Assembly (NCBI GenBank): GCA_947629515.1
Contig: CANRDY010000001.1
Span: 24,948-88,947, forward strand
Direction of reading: 5' to 3'
Source of the DNA: an uncultured Clostridia bacterium
Lineage (GTDB): Bacteria; Bacillota; Clostridia; Christensenellales; Borkfalkiaceae
DNA: 64,000 nucleotides
Of the stretch, positions 5,778 through 63,098 are shown in pieces (the first letter of the stretch is position 1; each line of letters begins with the position of its first letter). A program made the translations under genes and the position numbers. The notes under the pieces are model-generated. The model searched no databases. It had not been told where the DNA came from and saw nothing but the letters and a program-made list of their open reading frames with translations.

Positions 5778-6050
5778 TTCGCGTTTCAAAGGGCAAGCAC
5801 AGACCACCTTGGGATTATCTCGGTCAATCTGCCGTTTCCCGCAAGCGGGAACCCTCGGCAGAGCGTCGGGCTACGCCCTCGCGCGAACCCGCTTCGCGGG
5901 CTTCTCATAGCGTTCGAAATGACAGTGCCTTATGTTGCGCCGATAATATGCGCGCGGGCGTTCCAACGCCCGCGCGCGAACAGTGCCTTAATGCGCTCCG
6001 ATAATATTTAAAATAGCGGCGGGCGGCAAAATGCCGCCCGCCGCACGCAC
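5778..6050 (+). repeat. composite repeat: C (long variant), I hairpin, duplicated C-tip, I hairpin
   Basis: CGTTTCAAAGGGCAAGCACAGACCAC...GAAATGACAGTGCCTTATGTTGCGCCGATAATAT. Hairpin 5950-5977 GCGCGCGGGCG/CGCCCGCGCGC. Second copy of the C tip at 5980-6012. Hairpin 6016-6044 GCGGCGGGCGGC/GCCGCCCGCCGC. Confidence 0.85.
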
Positions 6051-6060
6051 ACACAACAAC

Positions 6061-6155
6061 TTTTTTGCGTGAGCAAAAAAATTTCACTTGCGCGTAGCGC
6101 AAATTTCACTCGCACGCAGTGCGAATTTCACTTTTGCCGCAAGGCAAAATTACCT
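6061..6155 (-). repeat. A array (inverted orientation): 4 hairpins separated by GTGAAAT; begins 2 nt after the stop of gene 6156-6833
   Basis: Plus strand reads TTTTTTGCgtgaGCAAAAAA ATTTCAC TTGCGCgtaGCGCAA ATTTCAC TCGCACgcaGTGCGA ATTTCAC TTTTGCCgcaaGGCAAAA. Confidence 0.9.
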
Positions 6156-6833
6156 CTACTCCCTTTGCAAGAACGCTTTACAAAAAAGCTCTTCGTTTAC
6201 CTCGCCCGCAAGCACGCTCTGCACGGCTTTTACGCCCAGCTCCACCGCCTCTTCCAATACGCCCGCAAACAGCGAAAAGTCGTATTCGCACCTGTATGTC
6301 TGCCGCTTTGTGCGGTAAAGATAGCGCGTGTAGTCGAAGTGCCGCTTTAAGCACCTCTCCACGCCCGTCAGCGTGACGGTGGGAACGACCTGCTTTATGC
6401 TGTCGTACACCGCCCCCGTACATGCAAGCACCATGTCGCGCGGAAGGATCGTTCTGCGGGTCCTGTAAAATTTGCTTGCGTAAAGCCCCACGTCGCTCTC
6501 GAATTTCTGATGGGCGAAGAGCATGCGCTTACCCTCTTCAAAGGCATATACTATGGGGTGAATCGTGCTGTCGAGCGCGTAGTGCGTTGCCCAGCCCGCA
6601 AGGTAGCACTTGTTGCCCGAGAGCAGTTTTTTGAAGAGTTCGTCGGCTTTTTGCGCGTGCAGCTCCCGCCCCAAATTGGCGCGCGAGAGCTTCATGTTAT
6701 AGGCAAAGAACACGTCGCCCCCCTGCGCGCCGAGAATGTACAGCGCGCGCGAGGTTATCAGCTTTCTCGAATTACCGCCGATCTGCTCGTAAATGCGGTC
6801 GGCGGCTATTGTGTGGGTGAAATAATCGGGCAT
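6156..6833 (-). CDS. zinc-dependent phospholipase C-like family protein
   Basis: 225 aa. MPDYFTHTIAADRIY... N-terminus and GAQGGDVFFAYN block resemble the Firmicute Zn_dep_PLPC-domain hypothetical proteins. Assigned from memory of the family only. Confidence 0.5.
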   Translation of the reverse strand: MPDYFTHTIAADRIYEQIGGNSRKLITSRALYILGAQGGDVFFAYNMKLSRANLGRELHAQKADELFKKLLSGNKCYLAGWATHYALDSTIHPIVYAFEEGKRMLFAHQKFESDVGLYASKFYRTRRTILPRDMVLACTGAVYDSIKQVVPTVTLTGVERCLKRHFDYTRYLYRTKRQTYRCEYDFSLFAGVLEEAVELGVKAVQSVLAGEVNEELFCKAFLQRE

Positions 6834-14791: not shown

Positions 14792-15004
14792 ACGTGTTGA
14801 AAAATAACAAAATTTGTTGACGAAAACTAAATTCAAAATGTTACAAAAATTTTTTAATAATCGTTTTACATTTGGTTCGGGGGAATTTATAATTATTAAT
14901 GTAAACAGCAATTATAAATTTGCTCACTCATCATTTTTCCCCCTTATCATATAGAGGCGGCGCAAACTCCGGTTTGCGTCGTTTCTGCGTTTAAAGGCAG
15001 GGCG

Positions 15005-15156
15005 GCGGGGGCGCGTTTGCGCCCCCGCGGCAAGCGTTCCGCTTGAGCGGCGTGTCGCAAGCGTTTCGCTTGATCAAGTGTCTTAACAGCGTGAAAGTAA
15101 AACAGCGGAAAGGCTGTTCAACGGGAAGCGGCGGGCGGCATTTTGCCGCCCCCGCG
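15005..15156 (+). repeat. repeat modules I, B (with internal duplication), I
   Basis: GCGGGGGCGC/GCGCCCCCGC hairpin. CAAGCGTTCCGCTTGAGCGGCGTGTCGCAAGCGTTTCGCTTGATCAAGTGTCTTAACAGCG...GGCTGTTCAAC. GCGGCGGGCGGCATTTTGCCGCCCCCGC. Confidence 0.85.
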
Positions 15157-15264
15157 GTGAAATTTTTTTGCTTGCGCAAAAAAGTGAAATTCGCACTGCG
15201 TGCGAGTGAAATTTGCGGCGTTCCGCCGCAAGTGAAATTTTTTACCTACGGTAAAAAGTTATGG
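15157..15264 (+). repeat. A array: 4 x (GTGAAAT + perfect hairpin), closed by GTTATGG
   Basis: GTGAAAT TTTTTTGCttgcGCAAAAAA GTGAAAT TCGCACtgcGTGCGA GTGAAAT TTGCGGCGttcCGCCGCAA GTGAAAT TTTTTACCtacGGTAAAAA GTTATGG. Confidence 0.9.
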
Positions 15265-15862
15265 TAAACGTTTCTTTTAATCAAGTATCTTAACGGCGGA
15301 GAAATAAGCGAGCGTTTAGGCTGTTCAACTTGAACAACCCCCACCTTTAATTCCTCCCCCTTGTAATTTCTACGTCCTCATTCCCTCCCCTTTTTCAAGG
15401 GAGAGGGTAGGGTAGGGGTAGCGTGAGCACGCGGGGAGCAAAGAACAAACGGCTTTTGGTTCGCGTTTCAAAGTGCAAGCACAGACCACGGGGGGATTCT
15501 CTCACTCAATCCCGCGCCTACGGCGCGTGTCATATCCCTCGAAATGACAGTGCCTTATGTTGCTCCGATATTATTTAAAATTGCTCCCCCCTCTTAAATT
15601 CTCCCCCCTCGCAAGCGAAGGGGGAGGGTTGGGTATGGGGAAGTGCGCGAAGGAGCGCGAATATTTTTTCCTTATTCCCTCCCCCTTGGTAAGGGGGAGG
15701 AATTGAAGGTGGGGGTTGCAATTACGAAGTAAAAAAGTCCGAAGAAGCAAGCAAGACAAGGCGAACGAGCGACGACCGCAGCGAGTGTACAATGAAGTAC
15801 ACGAACAAGGCGGAGCGACGTTCAACACAGTATTGCGTAGCTTATTCGGGCTTTGCGGGAGC
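15265..15862 (+). repeat. composite repeat: degenerate B, E, C (15460-15580), E, E, F; right end abuts desulfurase stop codon
   Basis: Module sequences match copies at 56868-56955, 30611-30805, 1236-1291 and 63222-63375. Confidence 0.9.
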
Positions 15863-15863
15863 G

Positions 15864-17057
15864 TTAACCTCTGGCTTTTTTAACCGCCGCCTCCAACACC
15901 CCCAAAGCGTACTCAACATCTTGCTCCGTGTTCTGCACGCCGAACGAAAAGCGAACGGCGGAACGGGCGCGCTCTTCCCCCGCCATACCGCGTATCACGC
16001 GCGAGGGCACGGTCGCGCCCGCGGAACACGCCGAACCCGTCGAGGCGCAAACGCCGTTCAGATCGAGGTTGAAAAGCACGTTCGCACCCGCGCAACCCTC
16101 GAACGAAAGATTTACTATCCCGCCCGAAAGAACGTTACGTGCGCCGTTGAGCCGCGCGCCCCCGATTTTAAGCGCGCCGTTCAAAAATTCTTCGCAAAGC
16201 GTCCGAACCCGCGCGTAGCCCGCTCTGTCGGAAACGGCGAGCGAAAGCGACTTTGCAAGCCCCACCGACCCCGCAACGTTGACGGTGCCGCCCCGAAGCC
16301 CCCGCTCCTGCGTGCCGCCGCACACCAGCGGGGCGAGCCGCTCGCCCTTTTTTATATACATCGCCGCAACGCCCTTAGGTCCGCCGAACTTGTGCGCGGA
16401 AACGGCAAATGCAGAGCACTCACCCACGGGAAACTTCCCGAGGTGCACGCCCTGCACAAAATCGCAGTAGTAAAAAATCCCGCGGTTGCGGCAAATTTCG
16501 CCTATTTCGCCGTATTTTTGAAGCACGCCCGTCTCGTTGTTGACCGCCATCACGGCACAGAAAAACGTGTCGGGACGGATCGCCCGCAGCACTTCTTCGG
16601 GGGGAACCACGCCGTCGGACGACGGCTCGATAAAGGTAACGTCCACCCCCGCTTCCCGCATTTCAAGCGCGCTTTCGTATACGCACGGGTGCTCGACGGC
16701 GGACACTATAATGTGCCCTCTGCCGCCTTTGTCGCCGGCGTTTACGGCTTGTGCGTTTACGGCGCGAGGGGGAAAGTTACCTGCCGTAACTCCCATTTTT
16801 TTGAAGTGGTTTATGCACGCGCCCTTAACGGCGAGGTTGCCCGCCTCGGTTCCGCCCGAAAGAAAATATACCTCGCCCGACTCACAGCCGAAAACCGAGG
16901 CGACTTCATCGCGCGCAGAAAGCAGAGCCTCTGCCGCCGCTCTGCCCGCCGCGTGGCTCGACTGCGAGTTGCCGAACTCGCTCAAAAAATACGGGGTCAT
17001 CGCCTCGAACACCTCTTTTTTTACGGGCGTCGAGGCGGCGTTGTCAAGATAAATCAT
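15864..17057 (-). CDS. cysteine desulfurase (class V aminotransferase, NifS/IscS type)
   Basis: MIYLDNAASTP start, SAHKFGGPKG PLP-lysine motif, GSACSAG active-site Cys loop. Confidence 0.85.
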   Translation of the reverse strand: MIYLDNAASTPVKKEVFEAMTPYFLSEFGNSQSSHAAGRAAAEALLSARDEVASVFGCESGEVYFLSGGTEAGNLAVKGACINHFKKMGVTAGNFPPRAVNAQAVNAGDKGGRGHIIVSAVEHPCVYESALEMREAGVDVTFIEPSSDGVVPPEEVLRAIRPDTFFCAVMAVNNETGVLQKYGEIGEICRNRGIFYYCDFVQGVHLGKFPVGECSAFAVSAHKFGGPKGVAAMYIKKGERLAPLVCGGTQERGLRGGTVNVAGSVGLAKSLSLAVSDRAGYARVRTLCEEFLNGALKIGGARLNGARNVLSGGIVNLSFEGCAGANVLFNLDLNGVCASTGSACSAGATVPSRVIRGMAGEERARSAVRFSFGVQNTEQDVEYALGVLEAAVKKARG

Positions 17058-17144
17058 ATTTTTGTCTGTTTAACTCCCCGCGTTGTGCGTTATAACGCGC
17101 GGGGTTTTTTATTGAAAATTTAAATATATATTGATATTTTTAGG

Positions 17145-24831: not shown

Positions 24832-25314
24832 ATGTTTTTGGAAAAATCAACCCTTTTGAACTTACTTAAAGCCATCGACGCTTTGCAGAAGGGAAGTTCC
24901 GCCCAAAACGCGGGCGGCGAAAATAACGGCGGCGATCCCTCGCCCGACCTCTTCGGGAGCAATTACGGAAGTTTTGAAAATGCGAACGGCGGAGAACGCG
25001 GGGGCGCGAACGGCGGAGAACGCGGGGGCGCGAACGGCGGTTCGGGAAGCGGCTTCGGGGGCGGCTTCGGGGGCGCGAACGACCGACGCGGCTTTGACAG
25101 CGGGCGCGGCGCGGGTGAAGCGCGCGGCGGATCGGGGGGCTTTGGCGGAAACGGCGTGAACGGCGGAAAAGTTTTGAACGGCGGTTCGGGAAGCGCGGGC
25201 GCGCCGACGGGCGGGAGTTTGCCGAGCGGGTTTGTCGATATGCCGAACTTTATGTACGAGGCGTTGGTGCGCCACGAGCACGTGCGCAACAGAATCAAAA
25301 AGAGAAAAGAGTGA
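24832..25314 (+). CDS. hypothetical Gly-rich low-complexity protein
   Basis: 160 aa. Structured ends (MFLEKSTLLNLLKAIDALQKG... and ...FVDMPNFMYEALVRHEHVRNRIKKRKE) flank a G/N/S-rich core that includes a tandem NGGERGGA repeat. Start could be the TTG at 24838, which has better SD spacing. Confidence 0.5.
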   Translation: MFLEKSTLLNLLKAIDALQKGSSAQNAGGENNGGDPSPDLFGSNYGSFENANGGERGGANGGERGGANGGSGSGFGGGFGGANDRRGFDSGRGAGEARGGSGGFGGNGVNGGKVLNGGSGSAGAPTGGSLPSGFVDMPNFMYEALVRHEHVRNRIKKRKE

Positions 25315-25385
25315 AAAGGTTGCGCTACGCGCAAGGGAAATTTTTGCCTAACGGCAAAAGTGAAATTTGCGGCGTACCGCCGCAA
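25311..25385 (+). repeat. A array (3 hairpins); first linker GTGAAAA contains the TGA stop of 24832-25314
   Basis: GTGAAAA gg TTGCGCtacGCGCAA GGGAAAT TTTTGCCtaacGGCAAAA GTGAAAT TTGCGGCGtacCGCCGCAA. Confidence 0.85.
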
Positions 25386-26050
25386 GCGTTCCGCTTGAGC
25401 GGCGTGTCGCCGCGGACGGGCGTCTTAACGACGGGGAAGTAAGACGGCGGAAAGGCTGTTCAACGGGAAGCGGCGGGGCGCGTTTGCGCCCCGCCGCATT
25501 TTTAAATAATAACTGTCACCCTGAGCAAGCGAAGCGCGTCGAACGGGTCTATTCCGCAGTATAGCGGAGCTTTTTATAAGGTGAATATTATTTGGAAGTG
25601 TTAACGCGTTTCAAAGTGCAAGCACAGACCACCTTGGGATTATCTCACTCAATCCCGCGCCTACGGCGCGTGTCATGTCGTTCGAAATGACAGTGCCATA
25701 ATGCGCTCCGATATTATTTGGAAGTCCTACCCCCACCCTGCCCTCCCCCTCCAAATGGAAGGGGAGGAATGGGCGATTGTTAGGTTGCTGTACGAAGTGA
25801 GAAACTTTGGAGGCGAGCGGGGATTTCTCAAAACAGCGGACACCCGCTGTTTTGCCCCGCGAGGTGAGCTTGCGCATAGTGCAAGGCGCAAGCGGTGACC
25901 GAGAACGGCGTTTTTCCTTGCGCCGTTCGAGAAGCGAGCAGAACGAGGAGCGCGAGCAGTTTGCGAGGGAGCTTACAATGACGTAAGTGACCGAGCAAAA
26001 GCGGAGCGCGACAATGTTATGCGAAGCATATACGAAGTTTAACGGTAGCC
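25386..26050 (+). repeat. composite repeat: B, I, D (25505-25570), C (25604-25724), E variant, F with nested H (25813-25933), G
   Basis: Each module matches the copies listed in the summary key. Ends 4 nt before the stop of 26055-27365. Confidence 0.9.
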
Positions 26051-27667: not shown

Positions 27668-28345
27668 ATGCGGCGGGCACTTTTCAAAGTGCCCGCCGCA
27701 AGCGTTCCGCTTAACTATGTGTCTTAACGACGTGAAAGTAAAACAGCGGAAAGGCTGTTCAACACGAGGGCTGACCCCCTCCCTTGTATTCCCTCCCCCT
27801 GTTCTTTCTTCTATTCCCTCCCCTTCCGTTTCGGAGGGGGAGGGCGAGGGTAGGGGTGGCGGGAGTGCATAAGGGGCAATGAACGTACAATTTTTCGGTT
27901 CGCGTTTCAAAGTGCAAGCACGGACCACGGGGGGATTCTCTCACTTAATCGCCCGCGCATTTATGCGCGGGTCTCATAGCGTTCGAAATGACAGTGCCTT
28001 ATGTTGCTCCGATATTATTTGAAAGTGCACCCCCTCAGTCCGCGTTCGCGGACAGCTCCCCCTCTCGGCAAGCCGTGAAGGGGAGCGAATGGCGCGGGCG
28101 GAAGTATGGTTGCCCTTGCAATTACGAAGTGAGAAAGCCCGCAAGAAGCAAGTTATGCAAGGAAAGCGAGGAAAACCCGAAGGAGCTTACAATGACGTAA
28201 GTAACTGAGGGTTGCCGCAGCTTGACACAGCTTTATGTTGAACAGCTCAAACGCTCGGCTACCCCAACGCTGTTAAGACACTTGGTCAAGCGGAACGCTT
28301 GCGACGCATATACGAAGTTTGCGGCAGTTATACGAAGTTTACGGG
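27668..28345 (+). repeat. composite repeat: I, B, E (long), C (27900-28026), E, F, inverted B, G x2; overlaps the last codons of 28339-28983
   Basis: GCGGCGGGCACTT/AAGTGCCCGCCGC; CAAGCGTTCCGCTTAAC...GGCTGTTCAAC; CCCTCCCCTTCCGTTTCGGAGGGGGAGGG; remaining modules as in the key. Confidence 0.9.
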
Positions 28346-30520: not shown

Positions 30521-31061
30521 ACATTGAAATTTTTTTGCGAGAATTGTGAAATTTTTGCGCGGGTGCGGGGGAAAGGGACGGGACGCTTACTCAATAGCTT
30601 ATTTTTTGATACCGTTTCAAAGTGCAAGCACGGACCACCTTGGGATTCTCTCGGTCAATCCCGCGCCTACGGCGCGTGTCATATCCCTCGAAATGACAGT
30701 GCCATAATAAGCTCCGATAATATTTGAAATGCTCCCCCCTCTTTAATTCTCCCCCCTCGCAAGCGAAGGGGGGAGGGTTGGGTATGGGGAAGTGCGCGAA
30801 GGGGGAGTTTAGGGCGTTCGGTCGTCCTTGCAATTACGAAGTGAGAAACTTTGTAGATGCGAGCAGAACGAGGAGCGCGAGCAGTTTGCGAGGAAGCGTA
30901 CACAGAAGTACGTAACCGAGCAAAAGCGGAGCGCGACACAGCTTTATGTTGAACAGCCTATCCGCCGTATTACCTCAACGCTGTTAAGACACTTGGTCAA
31001 GCGGAACGCTTGCGAAGCATATACGAAGTTTTCGGGAGTATACGAAGTTTAACGGGAGCTA
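30521..31061 (+). repeat. composite repeat: A fragment, C (30611-30729), E, F, inverted B, G x2; last nt shared with stop of 31059-32033
   Basis: Modules as in the key. Terminal sequence GCATATACGAAGTTTTCGGGAGTATACGAAGTTTAACGGGAGC-TA. Confidence 0.9.
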
Positions 31062-32084: not shown

Positions 32085-32262
32085 ACAAGCGTTCCGTAAG
32101 CGTTCCGCTTAATCAATGGGCGGCGTGTCGCCGCGGACGGGATTCTTAACGGCGTTAAGATAGACAGCGTGTCGGCTGTTCAACAAGCGTTCCGCTTGAC
32201 CATGTGTCTTAACGGCGAGGAAGCAATACGGCGGATCGGCTGTTCAACTTAAATTTTAAGTG
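32085..32262 (+). repeat. module B, about 2.5 tandem copies
   Basis: CAAGCGTTCCGTAAGCGTTCCGCTTAATC...GGCTGTTCAAC CAAGCGTTCCGCTTGACCATGTGTCTTAACGGCG...GGCTGTTCAAC. Confidence 0.85.
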
Positions 32263-35966: not shown

Positions 35967-36631
35967 GCGCGCGGGCGTTTGAGAACGCCTGCGCGCGTAT
36001 ATTATGTTGTATTACATTATTATTTAAATATGAGTTCGCGTTTCAAAGTGCAAGCACGAACCACGGGGTCGAGTGCGGCGGTGTTCCTTACGCCGCGCGA
36101 GAAATTCTCTCGCTCAATCCCGCGCCTACGGCGCGCGTCATATCCCTCGAAATGACAGTGCCTTAATGCGCTCCGATAATATTTGAAAATGCTCCCCCCT
36201 CTTTAATTCTCCCCCCTCGCAAGCGAAGGGGGAGGGTTGGGTATGGGTAGGGCGCGAATGGGGAGTTTAGTGCGCTTGATTACCATTGCAATTACGAAGT
36301 GAGAAAGTTCGAAGGCGAGCGGGGATTTCTCAAAACAGCGGACACCCGCTGTTTTGCCCCGCGAGGTGAGCTTGCGCATAGTGCAAGGCGCAAGCGGTGA
36401 CCGAGCGCGGCGTTGCTCCTTACGCCGCGCGAGAAGCAAGCAAGACAAGGCGAACGAGCGACGACCGCAGGGAGTGTACAATGAAGTAAATGACTGAGCA
36501 AAAACGTAAGCGCGACACTGCTTTATGTTGAACAGCCTATCCGCCGTATTACTTCCCCGCTGTTAAGACACTTGGTCAAGCGGAACGCTTGCGACGCATA
36601 TACGAAGTTTACGGGCTTTGCGGTAGCTTAT
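35967..36631 (+). repeat. composite repeat: I, C (36036-36190, carrying a partial H hairpin at 36070-36103), E, F with nested H (36315-36433), inverted B, G; ends 4 nt before alaS stop
   Basis: Modules as in the key. Confidence 0.9.
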
Positions 36632-44939: not shown

Positions 44940-45216
44940 TTCGAGGGCTTTGCCCGACCCCTCGCCAAAGGCGAGACCGAAGCAAGCAAACTTCTAATAA
45001 TAACTGTCACCCTGAGCAAGCGAAGCGCGTCGAACGGGTCTATTCCGCAGCATAACGGGGTTTTTGTAAGGTGAATATTATTTGGAAGTGATAGCGCGTT
45101 TCAAAGTGCCCCGAGCAGACCACGGGGGGATTCTCTCACTCAATCCCGCGCCTTTGGCGCGTGTCATATCGTTCGAAATGACAGTGCCTTAATGTGCTCC
45201 GATATTATTTGGAAGT
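44940..45216 (+). repeat. composite repeat: D-like, D (44996-45060), C (45094-45216); C tip supplies the stop codon of 45205-45966
   Basis: AACTGTCACCCTGAGCAAGCGAAGCGCGTCGAACGGGTC; CGTTTCAAAGTGCCCCGAGCAGACCAC...CCGATATTATTTGGAAGT. Confidence 0.9.
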
Positions 45217-49088: not shown

Positions 49089-50024
49089 ATGTTTGATATT
49101 TATTGCGATTCGGGCGCGAACATTCCCGAAGAACTCTTAACAAAATACGATATTAAGGTGCTTTCGTACGTGATTAGCGTAAACGGCGAAGAGCGGCTTT
49201 GCCGCAACGAGGGCGAAGATTTTGCCGCCACCGCCAAAAAGTTCTACGACGATATGCGCGCGGGGGCTGAGGTGAAGACCTCGCTTCTGACCGCCGAAAT
49301 TATAGCCGAAACGATCAGACCCTCGCTCGAAAGGGGGCGCGACGTGCTGTTTACCTTTATTTCGTCGGGCATAAGCGGCACTTACAACCAGGGGCTTAAA
49401 GCCAAAGAACAGCTCGAAAAGCTCTACCCCGACAGAAAGGTGTTCGTCTGCGACAGCGCGAACGCCTCTATGGGCGAGGGCTTGCAGGTCATTCAGGCGG
49501 CAAAACTGAGGGATATGGGCGAGAGCGCGGAGGCTTGCGCGCAGTGGATAAAGGACAACGCCTATAAGATAAACAGCTATCTTACCGTGGGAGATTTGAA
49601 ATATTTGAAGCGCACGGGGAGAATTTCGGCTACACTCGCCATTGCGGGGACGATCCTCAACATCAAGCCCGTTTTGCGGGCGGACGGCGGCGACAACGCG
49701 AAGATAGTTTTCTTCGACAAAAAGCGGGGCAGAAAGCACGCCATCGAGGCTCTTGCCGAGGCGTTTGCCGAAAACGCCGAGAACCCGCAAGAGCAGACGG
49801 TCGCCATTTGCCATGCCGACAGCGAAGAGGACGCGCTCACCTTAAAGTCGCTCATCGAGGAAAAGGGCGCGGGCGAGGTAATTGTGGAATACTACGACAT
49901 CTGCACGGGTTCGCACGTGGGACCGGGGACGGTCGCCCTCTTCTTCTACGGCAAGGACCGCCGCGCCGCCGACAAGCCCAAGCCCAAACTTTTCGGGCGC
50001 AAACCTTCCGTGCAAAAGGCGTAA
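49089..50024 (+). CDS. DegV-family fatty-acid-binding protein
   Basis: MFDIYCDSGANIPEELLTKYDIKVL..., GTYNQG, and HVGPGTVALFF at the C-terminus. Confidence 0.85.
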   Translation: MFDIYCDSGANIPEELLTKYDIKVLSYVISVNGEERLCRNEGEDFAATAKKFYDDMRAGAEVKTSLLTAEIIAETIRPSLERGRDVLFTFISSGISGTYNQGLKAKEQLEKLYPDRKVFVCDSANASMGEGLQVIQAAKLRDMGESAEACAQWIKDNAYKINSYLTVGDLKYLKRTGRISATLAIAGTILNIKPVLRADGGDNAKIVFFDKKRGRKHAIEALAEAFAENAENPQEQTVAICHADSEEDALTLKSLIEEKGAGEVIVEYYDICTGSHVGPGTVALFFYGKDRRAADKPKPKLFGRKPSVQKA

Positions 50025-50045
50025 AAGGGTGCGGGCGTGATTTTT

Positions 50046-50630
50046 TGATTGCGCAAAAAAGTGAAATGAAAAAGTATGCGGCGGGCACTTTGAAAAGTGC
50101 CCGCCGCTATTTCCGATAATAACTGTCACCCTGAGCAAGCGAAGCTCGTCGAACGGGTCTATTCCGCAGTATAGCGGAGTTATTATAATAAGGCGGTTAT
50201 TATTTAAAATAGGGTACGCGTTTCAAAGAGCAAGCACGGACCACAGGGGGATTCTCTCACTCAATCGAACCCGCTATCGCGGGATTCTTATGTCGTTCGA
50301 AATGACAGTGCCATAATGTGCTCCGATATTATTTAGAAGTGCTTGAACGAAGTAAATTGCAATTACGAAGTGAGAAACTTCGGAGATGCGAGTTATGCAA
50401 GGAGCGCGCGGATTTTGCGATAGGAGCTTACAATGAAGTAAGTGTCGTACCGAAGGCGTTAGCCTTACCGAGCAAAAACGCAAGCGCGACACCGTTTTAT
50501 GTTGAACAGCCTATCCGCCGTATTACCTCAACGACGTTAAGACACTTGGTCAAGCGGAACGCTTGCGAAGCATATACGAAGTTTAACGGGAGCAAAGCGC
50601 GCGGGCGCGGCAAACGCCGCGCCCGCGCGC
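50046..50630 (+). repeat. most complete composite repeat: A fragment, I, D (50115-50180), C (50216-50340), F, inverted B, G (ends 50593), I hairpin (50597-50630)
   Basis: Modules as in the key. Fills almost the whole degV / LMW-PTP spacer. Confidence 0.9.
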
Positions 50631-51900: not shown

Positions 51901-51949
51901 GTCCACCAACGCCCCGCGACGCTTTATGCGTCGCGGGGCGTTGGTGGAC
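51901..51949 (-). terminator. 22-bp perfect hairpin following and including the tmRNA 3' end
   Basis: Minus strand GTCCACCAACGCCCCGCGACGC ataa GCGTCGCGGGGCGTTGGTGGAC. Confidence 0.7.
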
Positions 51950-52324
51950 GAGTCGGGACTTGCACCCGAGTCTTGACGGTGTCGTCGGAGCTTTCTACAT
52001 ACTTATTCCGCCTTTGGCTTGACCGCGCTTCCCGACGGACGGGGCGGGCGCGGGGCAGACCGCAAAAAATTTTGCACGGGCGCGCGCGGTCGGACGCGCG
52101 CTGTGCTATCCGTTAAGATGACGCTCTGCGCCGTCAACGGAATACGGCGCAAAACGGACCGCTTTAAGTTAAGCGGCGAGCGCGCAGCTTGCAGCTCTGT
52201 ACGAGGGGAAAGCTACGACTTTTTCGCTTTTATCTGCGTTTGAATTTAGTTTCCGTTTTTACAAAGCCGAGCCTTTGGTATGCTTTTCTCCTTCTCTTCC
52301 GCCAATCGAATCTGAAACTCGCCC
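51942..52324 (-). ncRNA. ssrA: tmRNA (ssrA), ~383 nt
   Basis: Minus strand 5' GGGCGAGUUUCAGAUUCGAUUGG... and 3' ...UCGGGUGCAAGUCCCGACUCGUCCACCA. The 7-bp acceptor stem GGGCGAG/CUCGUCC has a G3.U70 pair, followed by discriminator A and encoded CCA. Internal tag frame GCA GAU ... GCG CUC GCC GCU UAA (52237-52169) ends ...ALAA-stop. Confidence 0.8.
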
Positions 52325-55477: not shown

Positions 55478-56686
55478 ATGAAATATGTAGTTGTGCTCGG
55501 CGACGGAATGGCAGATTGGAAAATGGACAGCCTCGGCGGCAAGACCTGCCTTGAAAAGGCAAAAACGCCCGTTCTGGACGGCATTGCGCCCCGCTCGGAA
55601 GTGGGGCTGTGCAAGACCGTGCCCGCGGGAATGAAGCCGGGGAGCGACGTGGCGAATATGTCGGTGATGGGCTTTAACCCCGCCGATTTTTACACGGGGC
55701 GTTCCCCCCTCGAAGCCGTTTCGATGGGAATAGATTTGAAGCCCACCGACGTGACGTTGAGGTGCAACCTCGTCACCCTTTCGGACGGCGGGGCTTACGA
55801 GGATAAGACCATGCTCGACTATTCGGCGGGCGAGATATCCACCGAAGAGGCGCGGGAACTTATAAACTTTTTGAAGGATCATCTGGACGGCGGGGGGTTT
55901 ACTTTTTACCCCGGCATTTCGTACCGCCACTGCCTTGTTGCCGACTGCGGAAAGACGGGGCACACCCTTACCCCGCCCCACGATATTTCGGACAGAAAGA
56001 TAACGGAGTACCTTCCCAAGGGCGAAAATGCGCATATATATTTAGATTTTATGAAAAAGAGCTACGAATTGCTCAAAGACCACCCCGTAAATTTAAGGCG
56101 GAAAGCCGAGGGCAAAAACCCCGCCAACAGCATTTGGCTGTGGGGCGAGGGCACGAAACCCGCGCTCGAAAACTTTGAAAAACTGCGCGGGTTAAAGGGC
56201 GGAGTTATTTCCGCAGTCGACCTTGTTAAGGGCATCGGCATGCTTGCGGGAATGAAGATAATCGAGGTCGAAGGATCGACGGGAGAATATCACACCAACT
56301 TCCTCGGCAAGGCGAACGCCGCCGCCGACGCGCTCATCGGCGGGTTGGATTACGTATATATCCACATGGAAGCCCCCGACGAGTGCGGTCACCACGGCGA
56401 CCCCGAGCACAAGATCTATTCTATCGAGCAAATCGATTCGAAGGTCGTAAAGACCCTTTTGGAGAGGCTGAAAGGGGAAAGGTTTGCAATGCTCGTCTGC
56501 CCCGACCACCCCACTCCCTGCGCCTGCAAAACGCACGTCTCCGACCCTATACCCTACCTTATTTACACAAACACAAAAGACCTCGGCAACGGCGCGCCGC
56601 GCTACACCGAGGACGAGGCGGCAAAGACGGGCGAGTACGTCGCCGACGGCTACAAGCTCATCGAAAAGCTGTTGGGGATAAAGTGA
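55478..56686 (+). CDS. apgM: cofactor-independent phosphoglycerate mutase, archaeal-type (ApgM family)
   Basis: MKYVVVLGDGMADW start, HMEAPDECGHHGD, metalloenzyme-superfamily blocks. 402 aa. Confidence 0.8.
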   Translation: MKYVVVLGDGMADWKMDSLGGKTCLEKAKTPVLDGIAPRSEVGLCKTVPAGMKPGSDVANMSVMGFNPADFYTGRSPLEAVSMGIDLKPTDVTLRCNLVTLSDGGAYEDKTMLDYSAGEISTEEARELINFLKDHLDGGGFTFYPGISYRHCLVADCGKTGHTLTPPHDISDRKITEYLPKGENAHIYLDFMKKSYELLKDHPVNLRRKAEGKNPANSIWLWGEGTKPALENFEKLRGLKGGVISAVDLVKGIGMLAGMKIIEVEGSTGEYHTNFLGKANAAADALIGGLDYVYIHMEAPDECGHHGDPEHKIYSIEQIDSKVVKTLLERLKGERFAMLVCPDHPTPCACKTHVSDPIPYLIYTNTKDLGNGAPRYTEDEAAKTGEYVADGYKLIEKLLGIK

Positions 56687-56840
56687 GTTTTTGCTAACGC
56701 AAAAGTGAAATTTTTTTGCGTAAGCAAAAAAGTGAAATTTGCGGCGTGCCGCCGCAAGTGAAATTTGCACTTCGTGCAAGTGAAATTTTTGCCTTACGGC
56801 AAAAGTGAAATTTTTTGCGCTATCGCGCAAAAAGTTGTGG
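56683..56840 (+). repeat. A array, largest copy: 7 hairpins; first linker GTGAGTT contains the TGA stop of apgM; closed by GTTGTGG
   Basis: Stems TTTTGC, TTTTTTGC, TTGCGGCG, TTGCAC, TTTTGCC and TTTTTGCGC, each with a perfect complement. Loops taac/gtaa/tgc/ttc/ttac/tatc. GTGAAAT linkers at 56705, 56732, 56758, 56780 and 56805. Confidence 0.9.
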
Positions 56841-57200
56841 TAAAAATTATGCGGCGGGCGCCGCGGTAACCCCCCACCTTTCATTCCTCCCCCTTGTAAT
56901 TTCTCCGCCCAATATTCCCTCCCCTTTCTCAAGGGGGAGGGGAGGGTAGGGGTTTTTCTTATAATATCGGAGCATATTAAGGCACTGTCATTTCGAGGGA
57001 TATGACACGCGCCGTAGGCGCGGGATTGACCGAGATAATCCCAACGTGGTCTGTGCTTGCTCTTTGAAACCAACACCCACATTTCTGTAATAATTACTCC
57101 GCTATGCTGCGGAATAGACCCGTTCGACGCGCTTCGCTTGCTCAGGGTGACAGTTATTATTATAATGCGGCGGGCGACTTTTCAAAGTCGCCCGCCGCTT
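56841..57200. repeat. composite repeat with inverted modules: I, E, inverted C (56957-57072), inverted D (57097-57160), I hairpin
   Basis: E is in the usual orientation, but C and D are reverse-complemented relative to all other copies. GCGGCGGGCGACTT/AAGTCGCCCGCCGC hairpin at 57168-57199. Confidence 0.9.
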
Positions 57201-62888: not shown

Positions 62889-63098
62889 TAAACGTTCCGT
62901 TTAATCAAGTGTCTTAACGGCGTTGAGGGAAAACGGCGGAGCGGCTGTTCAACGCGAGCAAGCGTTCCGCTTGACCATGCGTCTTAACAGCGTTGAGGGA
63001 AAACGGCGGAACGGCTGTTCAACGCGAGCAAGCGTTCCGCTTGACCATGCGTCTTAACGGCGTTGAGGGAAAACGGCGGAGTGGCTGTTCAACGCGAG
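62889..63098 (+). repeat. module B, three tandem copies with exact 70-nt period
   Basis: Units at 62889-62958, 62959-63028 and 63029-63098. The last two differ at only 3-4 positions. Confidence 0.9.

Follow-up and report, generated by a model that had tools for sequence, protein, structure and literature searches.

The subject of this analysis is an array of short hairpins at positions 56683–56840 of a 64,000-nucleotide stretch of DNA from an uncultured Clostridia bacterium of the Borkfalkiaceae (assembly GCA_947629515.1, contig CANRDY010000001.1, positions 24,948 to 88,947 of the forward strand); the whole stretch is called the window below. The array, which begins within the stop codon of the gene apgM and which we call array C, is a copy of the catalogued, functionally uncharacterised Gut-1 RNA family (Rfam RF01706), and its six hairpins make it an unusually long member. 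In a scan with the Rfam 15 covariance models at gathering thresholds, array C matched RF01706 at 56730–56816 with 56.5 bits, the gathering score of the family being 50 bits. The RF01706 model, which Rfam types as 'Gene; sRNA', has three hairpins with (G)UGAAAU separators, and the family as a whole spans one to seven; the alignment to the model brings out the features that array C has in common with the family, namely consecutive short hairpins, covarying stems and (G)UGAAAU between them. An earlier sequence-only reading of this DNA had stated that it knew of no described element with such a design, a claim that fails because array C matches RF01706 above its gathering score. Weinberg et al. 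(2010, Genome Biol 11:R31, PMC2864571) defined Gut-1 from 43 representatives and knew it from sequences of the human gut alone, with none in a sequenced organism. In the literature searched, we found nothing on Gut-1, RF01706 or GTGAAAT hairpin repeats later than that paper, which does not describe the hosts, the placement at 3′ ends, the variability of the arrays, the inverted pairs or the GTGATAT variant reported here.

Direct reading of the sequence gives six perfect hairpins with five exact GTGAAAT heptamers between them. The open reading frame (ORF) at 55478–56686 encodes a cofactor-independent phosphoglycerate mutase, ApgM (Pfam PF10143 and PF01676), and its TGA stop at 56684–56686 lies inside a degenerate opening linker, GTGAGT (56683–56688, plus strand). 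The core of the array (56689–56833, plus strand) then consists of TTTTGC-TAAC-GCAAAA (56689–56704), TTTTTTGC-GTAA-GCAAAAAA (56712–56731), TTGCGGCG-TGC-CGCCGCAA (56739–56757), TTGCAC-TTC-GTGCAA (56765–56779), TTTTGCC-TTAC-GGCAAAA (56787–56804) and TTTTTGCGC-TATC-GCGCAAAAA (56812–56833). The second to sixth hairpins follow the exact linkers that start at 56705, 56732, 56758, 56780 and 56805, respectively, and the array closes with GTTGTGG (56834–56840, plus strand). The stems, of 6–9 bp, are fully complementary in all six hairpins. The sequence-only reading was thus right about the layout, the loops, the start within the apgM stop codon and the closing linker; the seven units that it counted are in fact six hairpins with seven linker positions, five of them exact. 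It had also proposed an alternative register, in which GUGAAAU becomes the loop between an A-run and a U-run arm, and this is the register that RNAfold chooses for the first two units. The window has 23 copies of GTGAAAT, where 7.4 ± 2.7 are expected, and 12 of the 23 fall within three arrays; a count of 23 was reached in none of 100 shuffles, which rules out a chance origin of array C. A simple tandem repeat is ruled out as well: Tandem Repeats Finder (TRF) detects just a two-copy repeat, because the units have the linker, and not the stems, in common.

The window holds at least five arrays of this design. Array A (6054–6156, minus strand) directly follows the TAG stop of an ORF at 6156–6833 and has four hairpins, three exact linkers and a closing GTTGTTG; its Gut-1 score of 47.7 bits is slightly under the gathering score. 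Array B (15157–15264, plus strand), with four hairpins, four exact linkers and a closing GTTATGG, matches RF01706 at 15155–15243 with 52.3 bits. Array D (25311–25385, plus strand; 16.2 bits, again under the gathering score) reads GTGAAAA, hairpin, GGGAAAT, hairpin, GTGAAAT, hairpin, and its first linker contains the TGA stop of the ORF at 24832–25314. Mini-array E (50037–50067, plus strand) is a one-hairpin remnant, consisting of GTGA, one imperfect hairpin and GTGAAAT, that begins 13 nt past the stop of a DegV-family ORF (49089–50024) and is followed by a GC hairpin at 50078–50107. Individual units recur among the arrays: TCGCAC-TGC-GTGCGA has the same sequence in A and B, TTGCGGCG-TKC-CGCCGCAA is found in B and C with a TAC-loop form in D, TTTTGCC-TTRC-GGCAAAA is found in A and C with a TAAC-loop form in D, and T7GC-N4-GCA6 is common to A, B and C. 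The order of these identical or near-identical units differs among arrays A, B, C and D, and the arrays are therefore mosaics of shuffled modules rather than duplicates of one another. We also note that in arrays C (GTGAGT, 56683–56688) and D (GTGAAAA, 25311–25317) a degenerate first linker provides the TGA stop of the upstream ORF, and therefore insertion of these arrays may have reshaped the ends of the upstream genes.

An exact-pattern scan (three GTGAAAT spaced 11–26 nt apart) was made over one genome from each of 185,579 species. It gave at least 120 loci, and roughly two thirds of the matches listed hold true hairpin arrays. From the matches listed and the window, 84 arrays with 2–7 hairpins were parsed, 81 of them from the loci. 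The sequence-only reading had expected the linker to be conserved and the arrays to be associated with the 3′ ends of genes, and both expectations are supported across the parsed arrays. Among the matches listed, the hosts are almost all metagenome-assembled genomes (MAGs) from gut or rumen, labelled Clostridia, Eubacteriales, Oscillospiraceae, Acutalibacteraceae, Ruminococcaceae or Christensenellaceae, and four of the loci listed belong to Akkermansia or Akkermansiaceae MAGs. The ApgM protein of the window is at most 81% identical to any database protein, its best named matches being Clostridia MAGs and 'Candidatus Coproplasma', and the window carries a gene for a GerA spore-germination protein. 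Viral contigs had true arrays in only about 3 of 119 pattern matches, and a phage origin of the arrays was rejected on these counts.

The anatomy of the family is that of freely varying stems which are held complementary. The stems of the parsed arrays contain about 1575 Watson-Crick pairs against about 45 non-standard ones and are 3–13 bp long, mostly 5–7 bp. Among 16 aligned arrays of one architectural type, compensatory double changes that preserve pairing are seen in 10 of the 15 predicted pairs. In 260 distinct hairpins the loop has 3 nt in 152 cases and 4 nt in 88, and a 5′C-G3′ pair closes it in 223. The loops are strongly asymmetric between strands, with T..C (e.g., TTC, TGC, TAC, TTGC, TTAC and TAAC) in 154 hairpins versus G..A in 9 (p = 3e-35), and control terminator-like hairpins of the same loci have no such loop preference. 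The 5′ arms are 62% pyrimidine across the parsed arrays; in the window genome the arms have a T-run on the 5′ side and an A-run on the 3′ side, which is opposite to a terminator. First linkers retain positions 3–7, GAAAT (with variants ACGAAAT and ATGAAAT), and last linkers retain just positions 1–2, GT (GTTGTGG, GTGAAGG and GTTAAGG). We therefore take GAAAU, hairpin, GU as the best description of the repeating unit, with units strung head to tail, one to seven per array. A sister lineage has the same architecture with GTGATAT in all linkers of its arrays, as seen in the Rfam seed alignment and in a metagenome scan; the linker, which the sequence-only reading called invariant, is thus not strictly so.

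The placement of the arrays was counted over those parsed from the matches listed and the window, leaving out inverted partner ('X') arrays, which are described below. The nearest upstream feature is co-directional with the array in 43 cases (28 coding sequences and 15 tRNA genes) and opposite in 16. The gap to a co-directional feature is at most 50 nt in 27 of the 43, and in several cases array and stop codon overlap. Tandem intergenic regions hold 31 arrays, convergent ones 8 and divergent ones 3, versus a background of 241:77:80; one of the three 'divergent' cases, that of array B, is an artefact of crude gene calling, since the plus-strand ORF upstream of it contains a Pfam domain. Within the window, the direction of the arrays follows that of the local genes across flips of gene direction: array A lies on the minus strand among minus-strand genes, and array D follows a plus-strand ORF and lies, like it, on the plus strand, within a region that is mainly minus-strand. 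This tracking argues for a tie of array orientation to transcription and not to the direction of replication.

The genes upstream of the arrays are functionally unrelated and include those for a P-type ATPase, MreB, DprA, PcrA/UvrD, a GH53 protein, an ABC transporter, a methyltransferase, DegV and ApgM, among others. We compared the apgM locus with its orthologues in the four closest relatives available, where ApgM has 77–81% amino-acid identity and the flanking UDG-LuxS-PNP genes are kept, and none of the four has an array there. In three of them the 3′ side of apgM carries a plain GC hairpin with a T-run, i.e., a terminator; in the fourth, L123, another repeat comes first and is followed by a similar hairpin. 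That other repeat, in a Coproplasma relative (L123/L124, 3700–3880), is a different tandem motif past the apgM stop, GATTTGATTTTAATGCG..., in about four repeats. The absence of arrays from the orthologous loci, together with the unrelated genes found upstream elsewhere, indicates that array C is a lineage-specific insertion of a generic element and not a regulator of apgM, and the same evidence rules out a conserved cis-regulator of that gene.

The signals around the arrays bear on how they are transcribed. Past array C, an A-rich spacer is followed by a GC hairpin, GCGGCGGGCGCCGC (56851–56864, as read on the plus strand), which is terminator-like for the minus strand alone (tail AUAAUUUUUA), so that antisense transcripts would end before the array; the same succession of A-rich spacer and GC hairpin with a T-run on the opposite strand is found at array E, where antisense transcripts should likewise stop just short of the array. 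The first strong plus-strand terminator-like hairpin past apgM lies at 57167–57198 (14 bp, tail TTCATATTTT), and we infer that the apgM transcript ends there. On the strand of array A, a strong terminator at 6016–6044 (minus strand; 13 bp, tail UAUUUUAAAU) comes 10 nt after the array, which therefore lies between stop codon and terminator. There is no promoter-like site upstream of array C on the plus strand. The arrays themselves do not have the form of intrinsic terminators: in the sense of the upstream gene GUGAAAU follows every hairpin, and the true terminators lie outside the arrays. Together, the terminator placement, the orientation and the lack of a promoter for array C favour co-transcription, and array C is probably transcribed in the GUGAAAU sense as part of the apgM 3′ untranslated region (3′ UTR). 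Of the roles that the sequence-only reading had suggested, namely a stabiliser of the 3′ UTR, an array bound by protein, and a substrate for recombination or transposition, the 3′-UTR role is the best supported in this genome.

The explanation to which we give about even credence is that Gut-1 arrays are dispersed 3′-end modules resembling the repetitive extragenic palindromes (REP) and bacterial interspersed mosaic elements (BIME) of other bacteria, transcribed with the upstream gene, in which non-terminating hairpins block 3′ exonucleases and insulate the transcript while the exposed heptamers serve a putative sequence-specific reader. In this scenario, a Gut-1 copy would have entered between the stop of apgM and the terminator that was already there, and would most likely be transcribed as apgM 3′ UTR. 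During transcription the RNA would fold into a series of highly stable hairpins, closed by C-G pairs and capped by loops of three or four nucleotides, and these would not terminate transcription, the 5′ arm being pyrimidine- and T-rich, the 3′ arm purine- and A-rich, and GUGAAAU rather than a U-run coming next. The hairpins could then stop 3′-to-5′ exonucleases and insulate the upstream transcript, and the heptamers exposed between them may be repeated sites for the putative reader, which might be a protein, an RNase or an RNA carrying the complement AUUUCAC. The arrays would be gained and lost as lineage-specific insertions, with units reshuffled by recombination at the linkers. The analysis shows the identity, anatomy and dispersal of the arrays, their position and direction at 3′ ends, the compensatory evolution of their stems and the shuffling of their units; the transcription as 3′ UTR, the function as barrier or platform and the existence of a reader are what we infer.

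Several observations weigh against this explanation. The linker is uniform within a genome and differs by lineage (GTGAAAT versus GTGATAT), and recent amplification accounts for this pattern more easily than would hundreds of sites evolving in step with a factor of the host. In the stems, G-U pairs are not more frequent than A-C mismatches (6 versus 14), which is unusual for an RNA helix; the control terminators, at 50 G-U versus 41 A-C, are also near-balanced, so the test is a weak one, and as a means of assigning the strand these counts proved uninformative. Read from the opposite strand, the loops become C-GNA-G and C-GNNA-G, sequences that are exceptionally stable as DNA mini-hairpins and GNRA-like as RNA loops, and one hairpin of the inverted partner arrays has a conserved UC/CU internal loop that on the other strand is tandem GA/AG. 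Finally, in many other genomes the array starts 6–13 nt past a canonical bidirectional terminator behind a tRNA gene; transcription in the GUGAAAU sense would there need read-through of an apparently efficient terminator.

Some of these points are better accommodated if the arrays are selfish or domesticated repeats acting at the level of DNA, like REP/REPIN-RAYT systems or miniature inverted-repeat transposable elements, the main rival explanation, which we regard as less probable than the 3′-end module. The hairpins would then form in single-stranded DNA, the heptamer would be recognised or cut by a dedicated enzyme, e.g., an HUH/Y1-type transposase, that copies units beside existing hairpins, whether terminators or earlier units, and any effects of the RNA would be a by-product. 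The lineage-specific linker, homogeneous within arrays and genomes, is best explained in this way, as is the position of arrays beside existing hairpins, and the high copy number (at least five arrays in 64 kb), the empty orthologous loci and the unrelated neighbouring genes point in the same direction, as do the stems, in which G-U is tolerated no more than A-C, and the C-GNA-G loops of the opposite strand. Arrays moreover adjoin existing terminator hairpins on either side, form inverted pairs in many genomes in the manner of BIMEs and REPINs, and in the window stand among other dispersed repeat families. This reading is weakened by the orientation of the arrays, which follows the transcription of the upstream gene, something that is not required of a purely DNA-level repeat; the stems, in addition, vary by unit and so offer no conserved palindrome to a REP-type enzyme. 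No transposase was seen beside the arrays, though none was looked for, and the few true arrays among the viral loci make a link to mobile DNA not evident.

A broader proposal, which we consider speculative and rather unlikely, is that Gut-1 would be a new class of self-propagating modular repeats of gut anaerobes, in which one dedicated factor, evolving together with the linker (GTGAAAT versus GTGATAT), both writes GAAAU-hairpin-GU units beside existing hairpins and reads them. With its conserved spacer and free stems it would be the structural inverse of REP/RAYT, and its inverted pairs would stack into four-way junctions through linker-linker pairing.

The inverted pairs are also the basis of a further alternative, namely that Gut-1 is a stand-alone small RNA gene encoding an RNA of about 200 nt made up of two inverted arrays, with its GUGAAAU and AUUUCAC linkers and an 11-bp helix paired, of which the one-directional arrays of the window would be degenerate copies or trans-targets. 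The top Gut-1 scores (66–88 bits) belong to arrays that lie 36–49 nt past tRNA genes with a wide range of specificities and come immediately after a bidirectional terminator; about 27 nt after each of these arrays there is a second, inverted one, in which four linkers alternate with three hairpins of about 18 nt each. The 11-bp helix pairs the sequence before the first hairpin with that after the last hairpin, and it covaries among lineages (GAAAUAAAUCC/GGAUUUAUUUC, GAAAUUUGCCC/GGGCAAAUUUC and UAUAUUCGCC/GGCGAAUAUA). One inverted pair folds at -67.4 kcal/mol, far below its shuffled controls (z = -5.2), and linkers pair with each other in its minimum-free-energy structure; some inverted pairs have terminators on both sides. 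Such loci include L034 (200–392), L102, L078, L043 and L009, and in the GTGATAT version L252, L286, L324 and L355. The closing helix competes with the first hairpin, and this could make a conformational switch. In the window itself, array B is preceded at a distance of 265 nt by a strong promoter-like site at 14865–14893 (plus strand; TTTACA, 17 nt, TATAAT; 11 of 12 matches), and it may therefore be part of a separate non-coding transcript or of a long 5′ leader of the ORF at 15792–17123. We nevertheless consider a stand-alone RNA doubtful, and more so than the proposals above: the window arrays have no inverted partner (A, C, D and E among them), array C starts inside a stop codon with no promoter-like site upstream on its strand, and the numbers of copies and units are too variable for a single small RNA gene. 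Nor is there a consistent promoter ahead of the inverted arrays, since what adjoins the far side of the pair may be the -35 box of the promoter of the following gene or else another terminator; a promoter immediately beside the 'X' arrays, present at some loci and replaced by a terminator at others, was accordingly rejected as a rule.

Least probable is that the arrays insulate the upstream gene or tRNA against antisense transcription or read-through, with the ATTTCAC-sense units acting as weak terminators in a row (hairpin followed by AUUUCAC-U(n)), since, although a consensus scan finds the units terminator-like on that strand and promoter-like repeat modules face arrays A and C, a proper GC hairpin with a T-run already ends the antisense direction before the array at C and E, the U-tract is just 3 nt in most genomes, and the promoter modules by arrays B, D and E face away. 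Several further candidates were considered and dropped for poor fit, namely DnaA boxes, cre sites, Cheo boxes, CodY boxes, omega-protein heptads and integron attC sites, a mimic of the tRNA-Phe anticodon loop (UGAAA), and a three-frame translation trap formed by stops in the linkers.

Among other known systems, close parallels are the REP/BIME (REPIN) elements of Proteobacteria, which are likewise extragenic, dispersed, multicopy and hairpin-forming, lie at the 3′ ends of transcription units in direct or inverted clusters and are not conserved at orthologous sites. A likely generic role of REP/BIME elements is protection of mRNA 3′ ends. The two designs are inverse, however: in REP the palindrome is conserved and the spacers vary, whereas in Gut-1 arrays the stems differ within an array and the 7-nt spacer alone is conserved, with no genome-wide conserved palindrome and no conserved 5′ tetranucleotide. 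The inversion holds for CRISPR arrays too, which share the tandem arrangement with a constant part. CRISPR repeats have at least 23 nt (about 23–50 nt) and non-palindromic spacers, whereas the constant part of the Gut-1 arrays has 7 nt, their variable parts are perfect palindromes of 9–29 nt, and the flanking genes are unrelated. On both counts the sequence-only reading, which had drawn these contrasts from a conserved linker and variable yet complementary stems, described the design correctly. Type III toxin-antitoxin loci are also tandem arrays with a constant part, and the AAAU of the linker resembles a ToxN-type cleavage motif. ToxI repeats, however, are near-identical, 34–45 nt long and accompanied by a terminator and a ToxN/AbiQ-like gene, whereas Gut-1 units are not similar in sequence according to TRF; a Pfam scan found no toxin or cas gene adjacent to the arrays (the genes found being GerA, the DegV-family gene and ORFs without a Pfam match) and none of the ToxN family. 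BOX elements of Streptococcus pneumoniae resemble Gut-1 arrays in being intergenic repeats assembled from modules, the internal ones varying in number, and in their predicted stable RNA structure; their modules are 45–60 bp long and conserved in sequence, whereas Gut-1 units have 18–29 nt and free stems, and the two have no sequence similarity. The sponge RNAs CsrB/RsmZ and CrcZ and the TRAP-binding leaders similarly present a repeated short single-stranded motif by means of variable hairpins. These are dedicated single genes or leaders with the motif in loops (GGA) or in triplets, whereas Gut-1 arrays occur in dozens of copies in putative 3′ UTRs with the motif between hairpins.

Gut-1 has been in Rfam since 2010 without a host, context or function attached. 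The window and the parsed arrays now supply hosts, namely spore-forming Clostridia related to Candidatus Coproplasma, Oscillospiraceae, Acutalibacteraceae, Christensenellaceae and some Akkermansiaceae. They also supply a genomic niche, directly past stop codons and the terminators of tRNA genes and in the direction of the upstream gene, and they define the unit, whose number varies, and add a second type of linker. If the arrays indeed stabilise or insulate transcripts, or recruit a factor, the expression of hundreds of genes in abundant gut bacteria would be affected; if they are mobile, they would constitute a new type of bacterial repeat. Stabilising or mobile alike, they would account for many contig breaks and much intergenic 'junk' in gut MAGs. 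Near-identical arrays at contig ends were seen, for example, at loci L079, L082, L083 and L097 (MAG JAZTZP01), where the contigs end after a GTTATG or GTTTCGG closer; short-read assemblies therefore seem to break at arrays or at what lies next to them.

The window contains further repeats, and between its genes this genome is a mosaic of repeat modules. A dispersed repeat, TATCGGAGCnnATTAAGGCACTGT(CATTTCGA), is present in 12 copies in the 64 kb, 11 of them on one strand (minus-strand copies at, e.g., 5922–5945, 5980–6003, 15547–15570, 25690–25713, 36155–36178, 45181–45204 and 50305–50328; plus-strand copy at 56965–56988). Its reverse complement reads as a sigma-70-like promoter (ATGACA, 17 nt, GATAAT or GATATT) with a conserved spacer, and it is copies of this repeat that face arrays A and C, the modules near B, D and E facing away. 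ARAGORN found no tRNA in the entire window and did not report the tmRNA gene at 51942–52324 (minus strand), which Rfam scores at 106.7 bits. A second repeat, TCTTAACnnCG...GGCTGTTCAAC, often after CGTTCCGCTTGA, has 12 sites, among them both sides of array B and the downstream side of array D, and gave no Rfam match at the gathering score (e.g., 15081–15122, 15288–15329, 25423–25464, 27722–27763 and 32144–32248, with three tandem 70-nt units at 62893–63098). Two others have four copies each: a C-rich repeat, CCCCCACCTTTnATTCCTCCCCCTTG, that pairs with a nearby G-rich CAAGGGGGAGG (1263–1288, 15338–15363, 15690–15715 and 56871–56896), and the repeat GATTGACCGAGATAATCCCAA..GTGGTCTGTGCTTGC (5809–5829, 25634–25654, 30640–30660 and 57024–57044).

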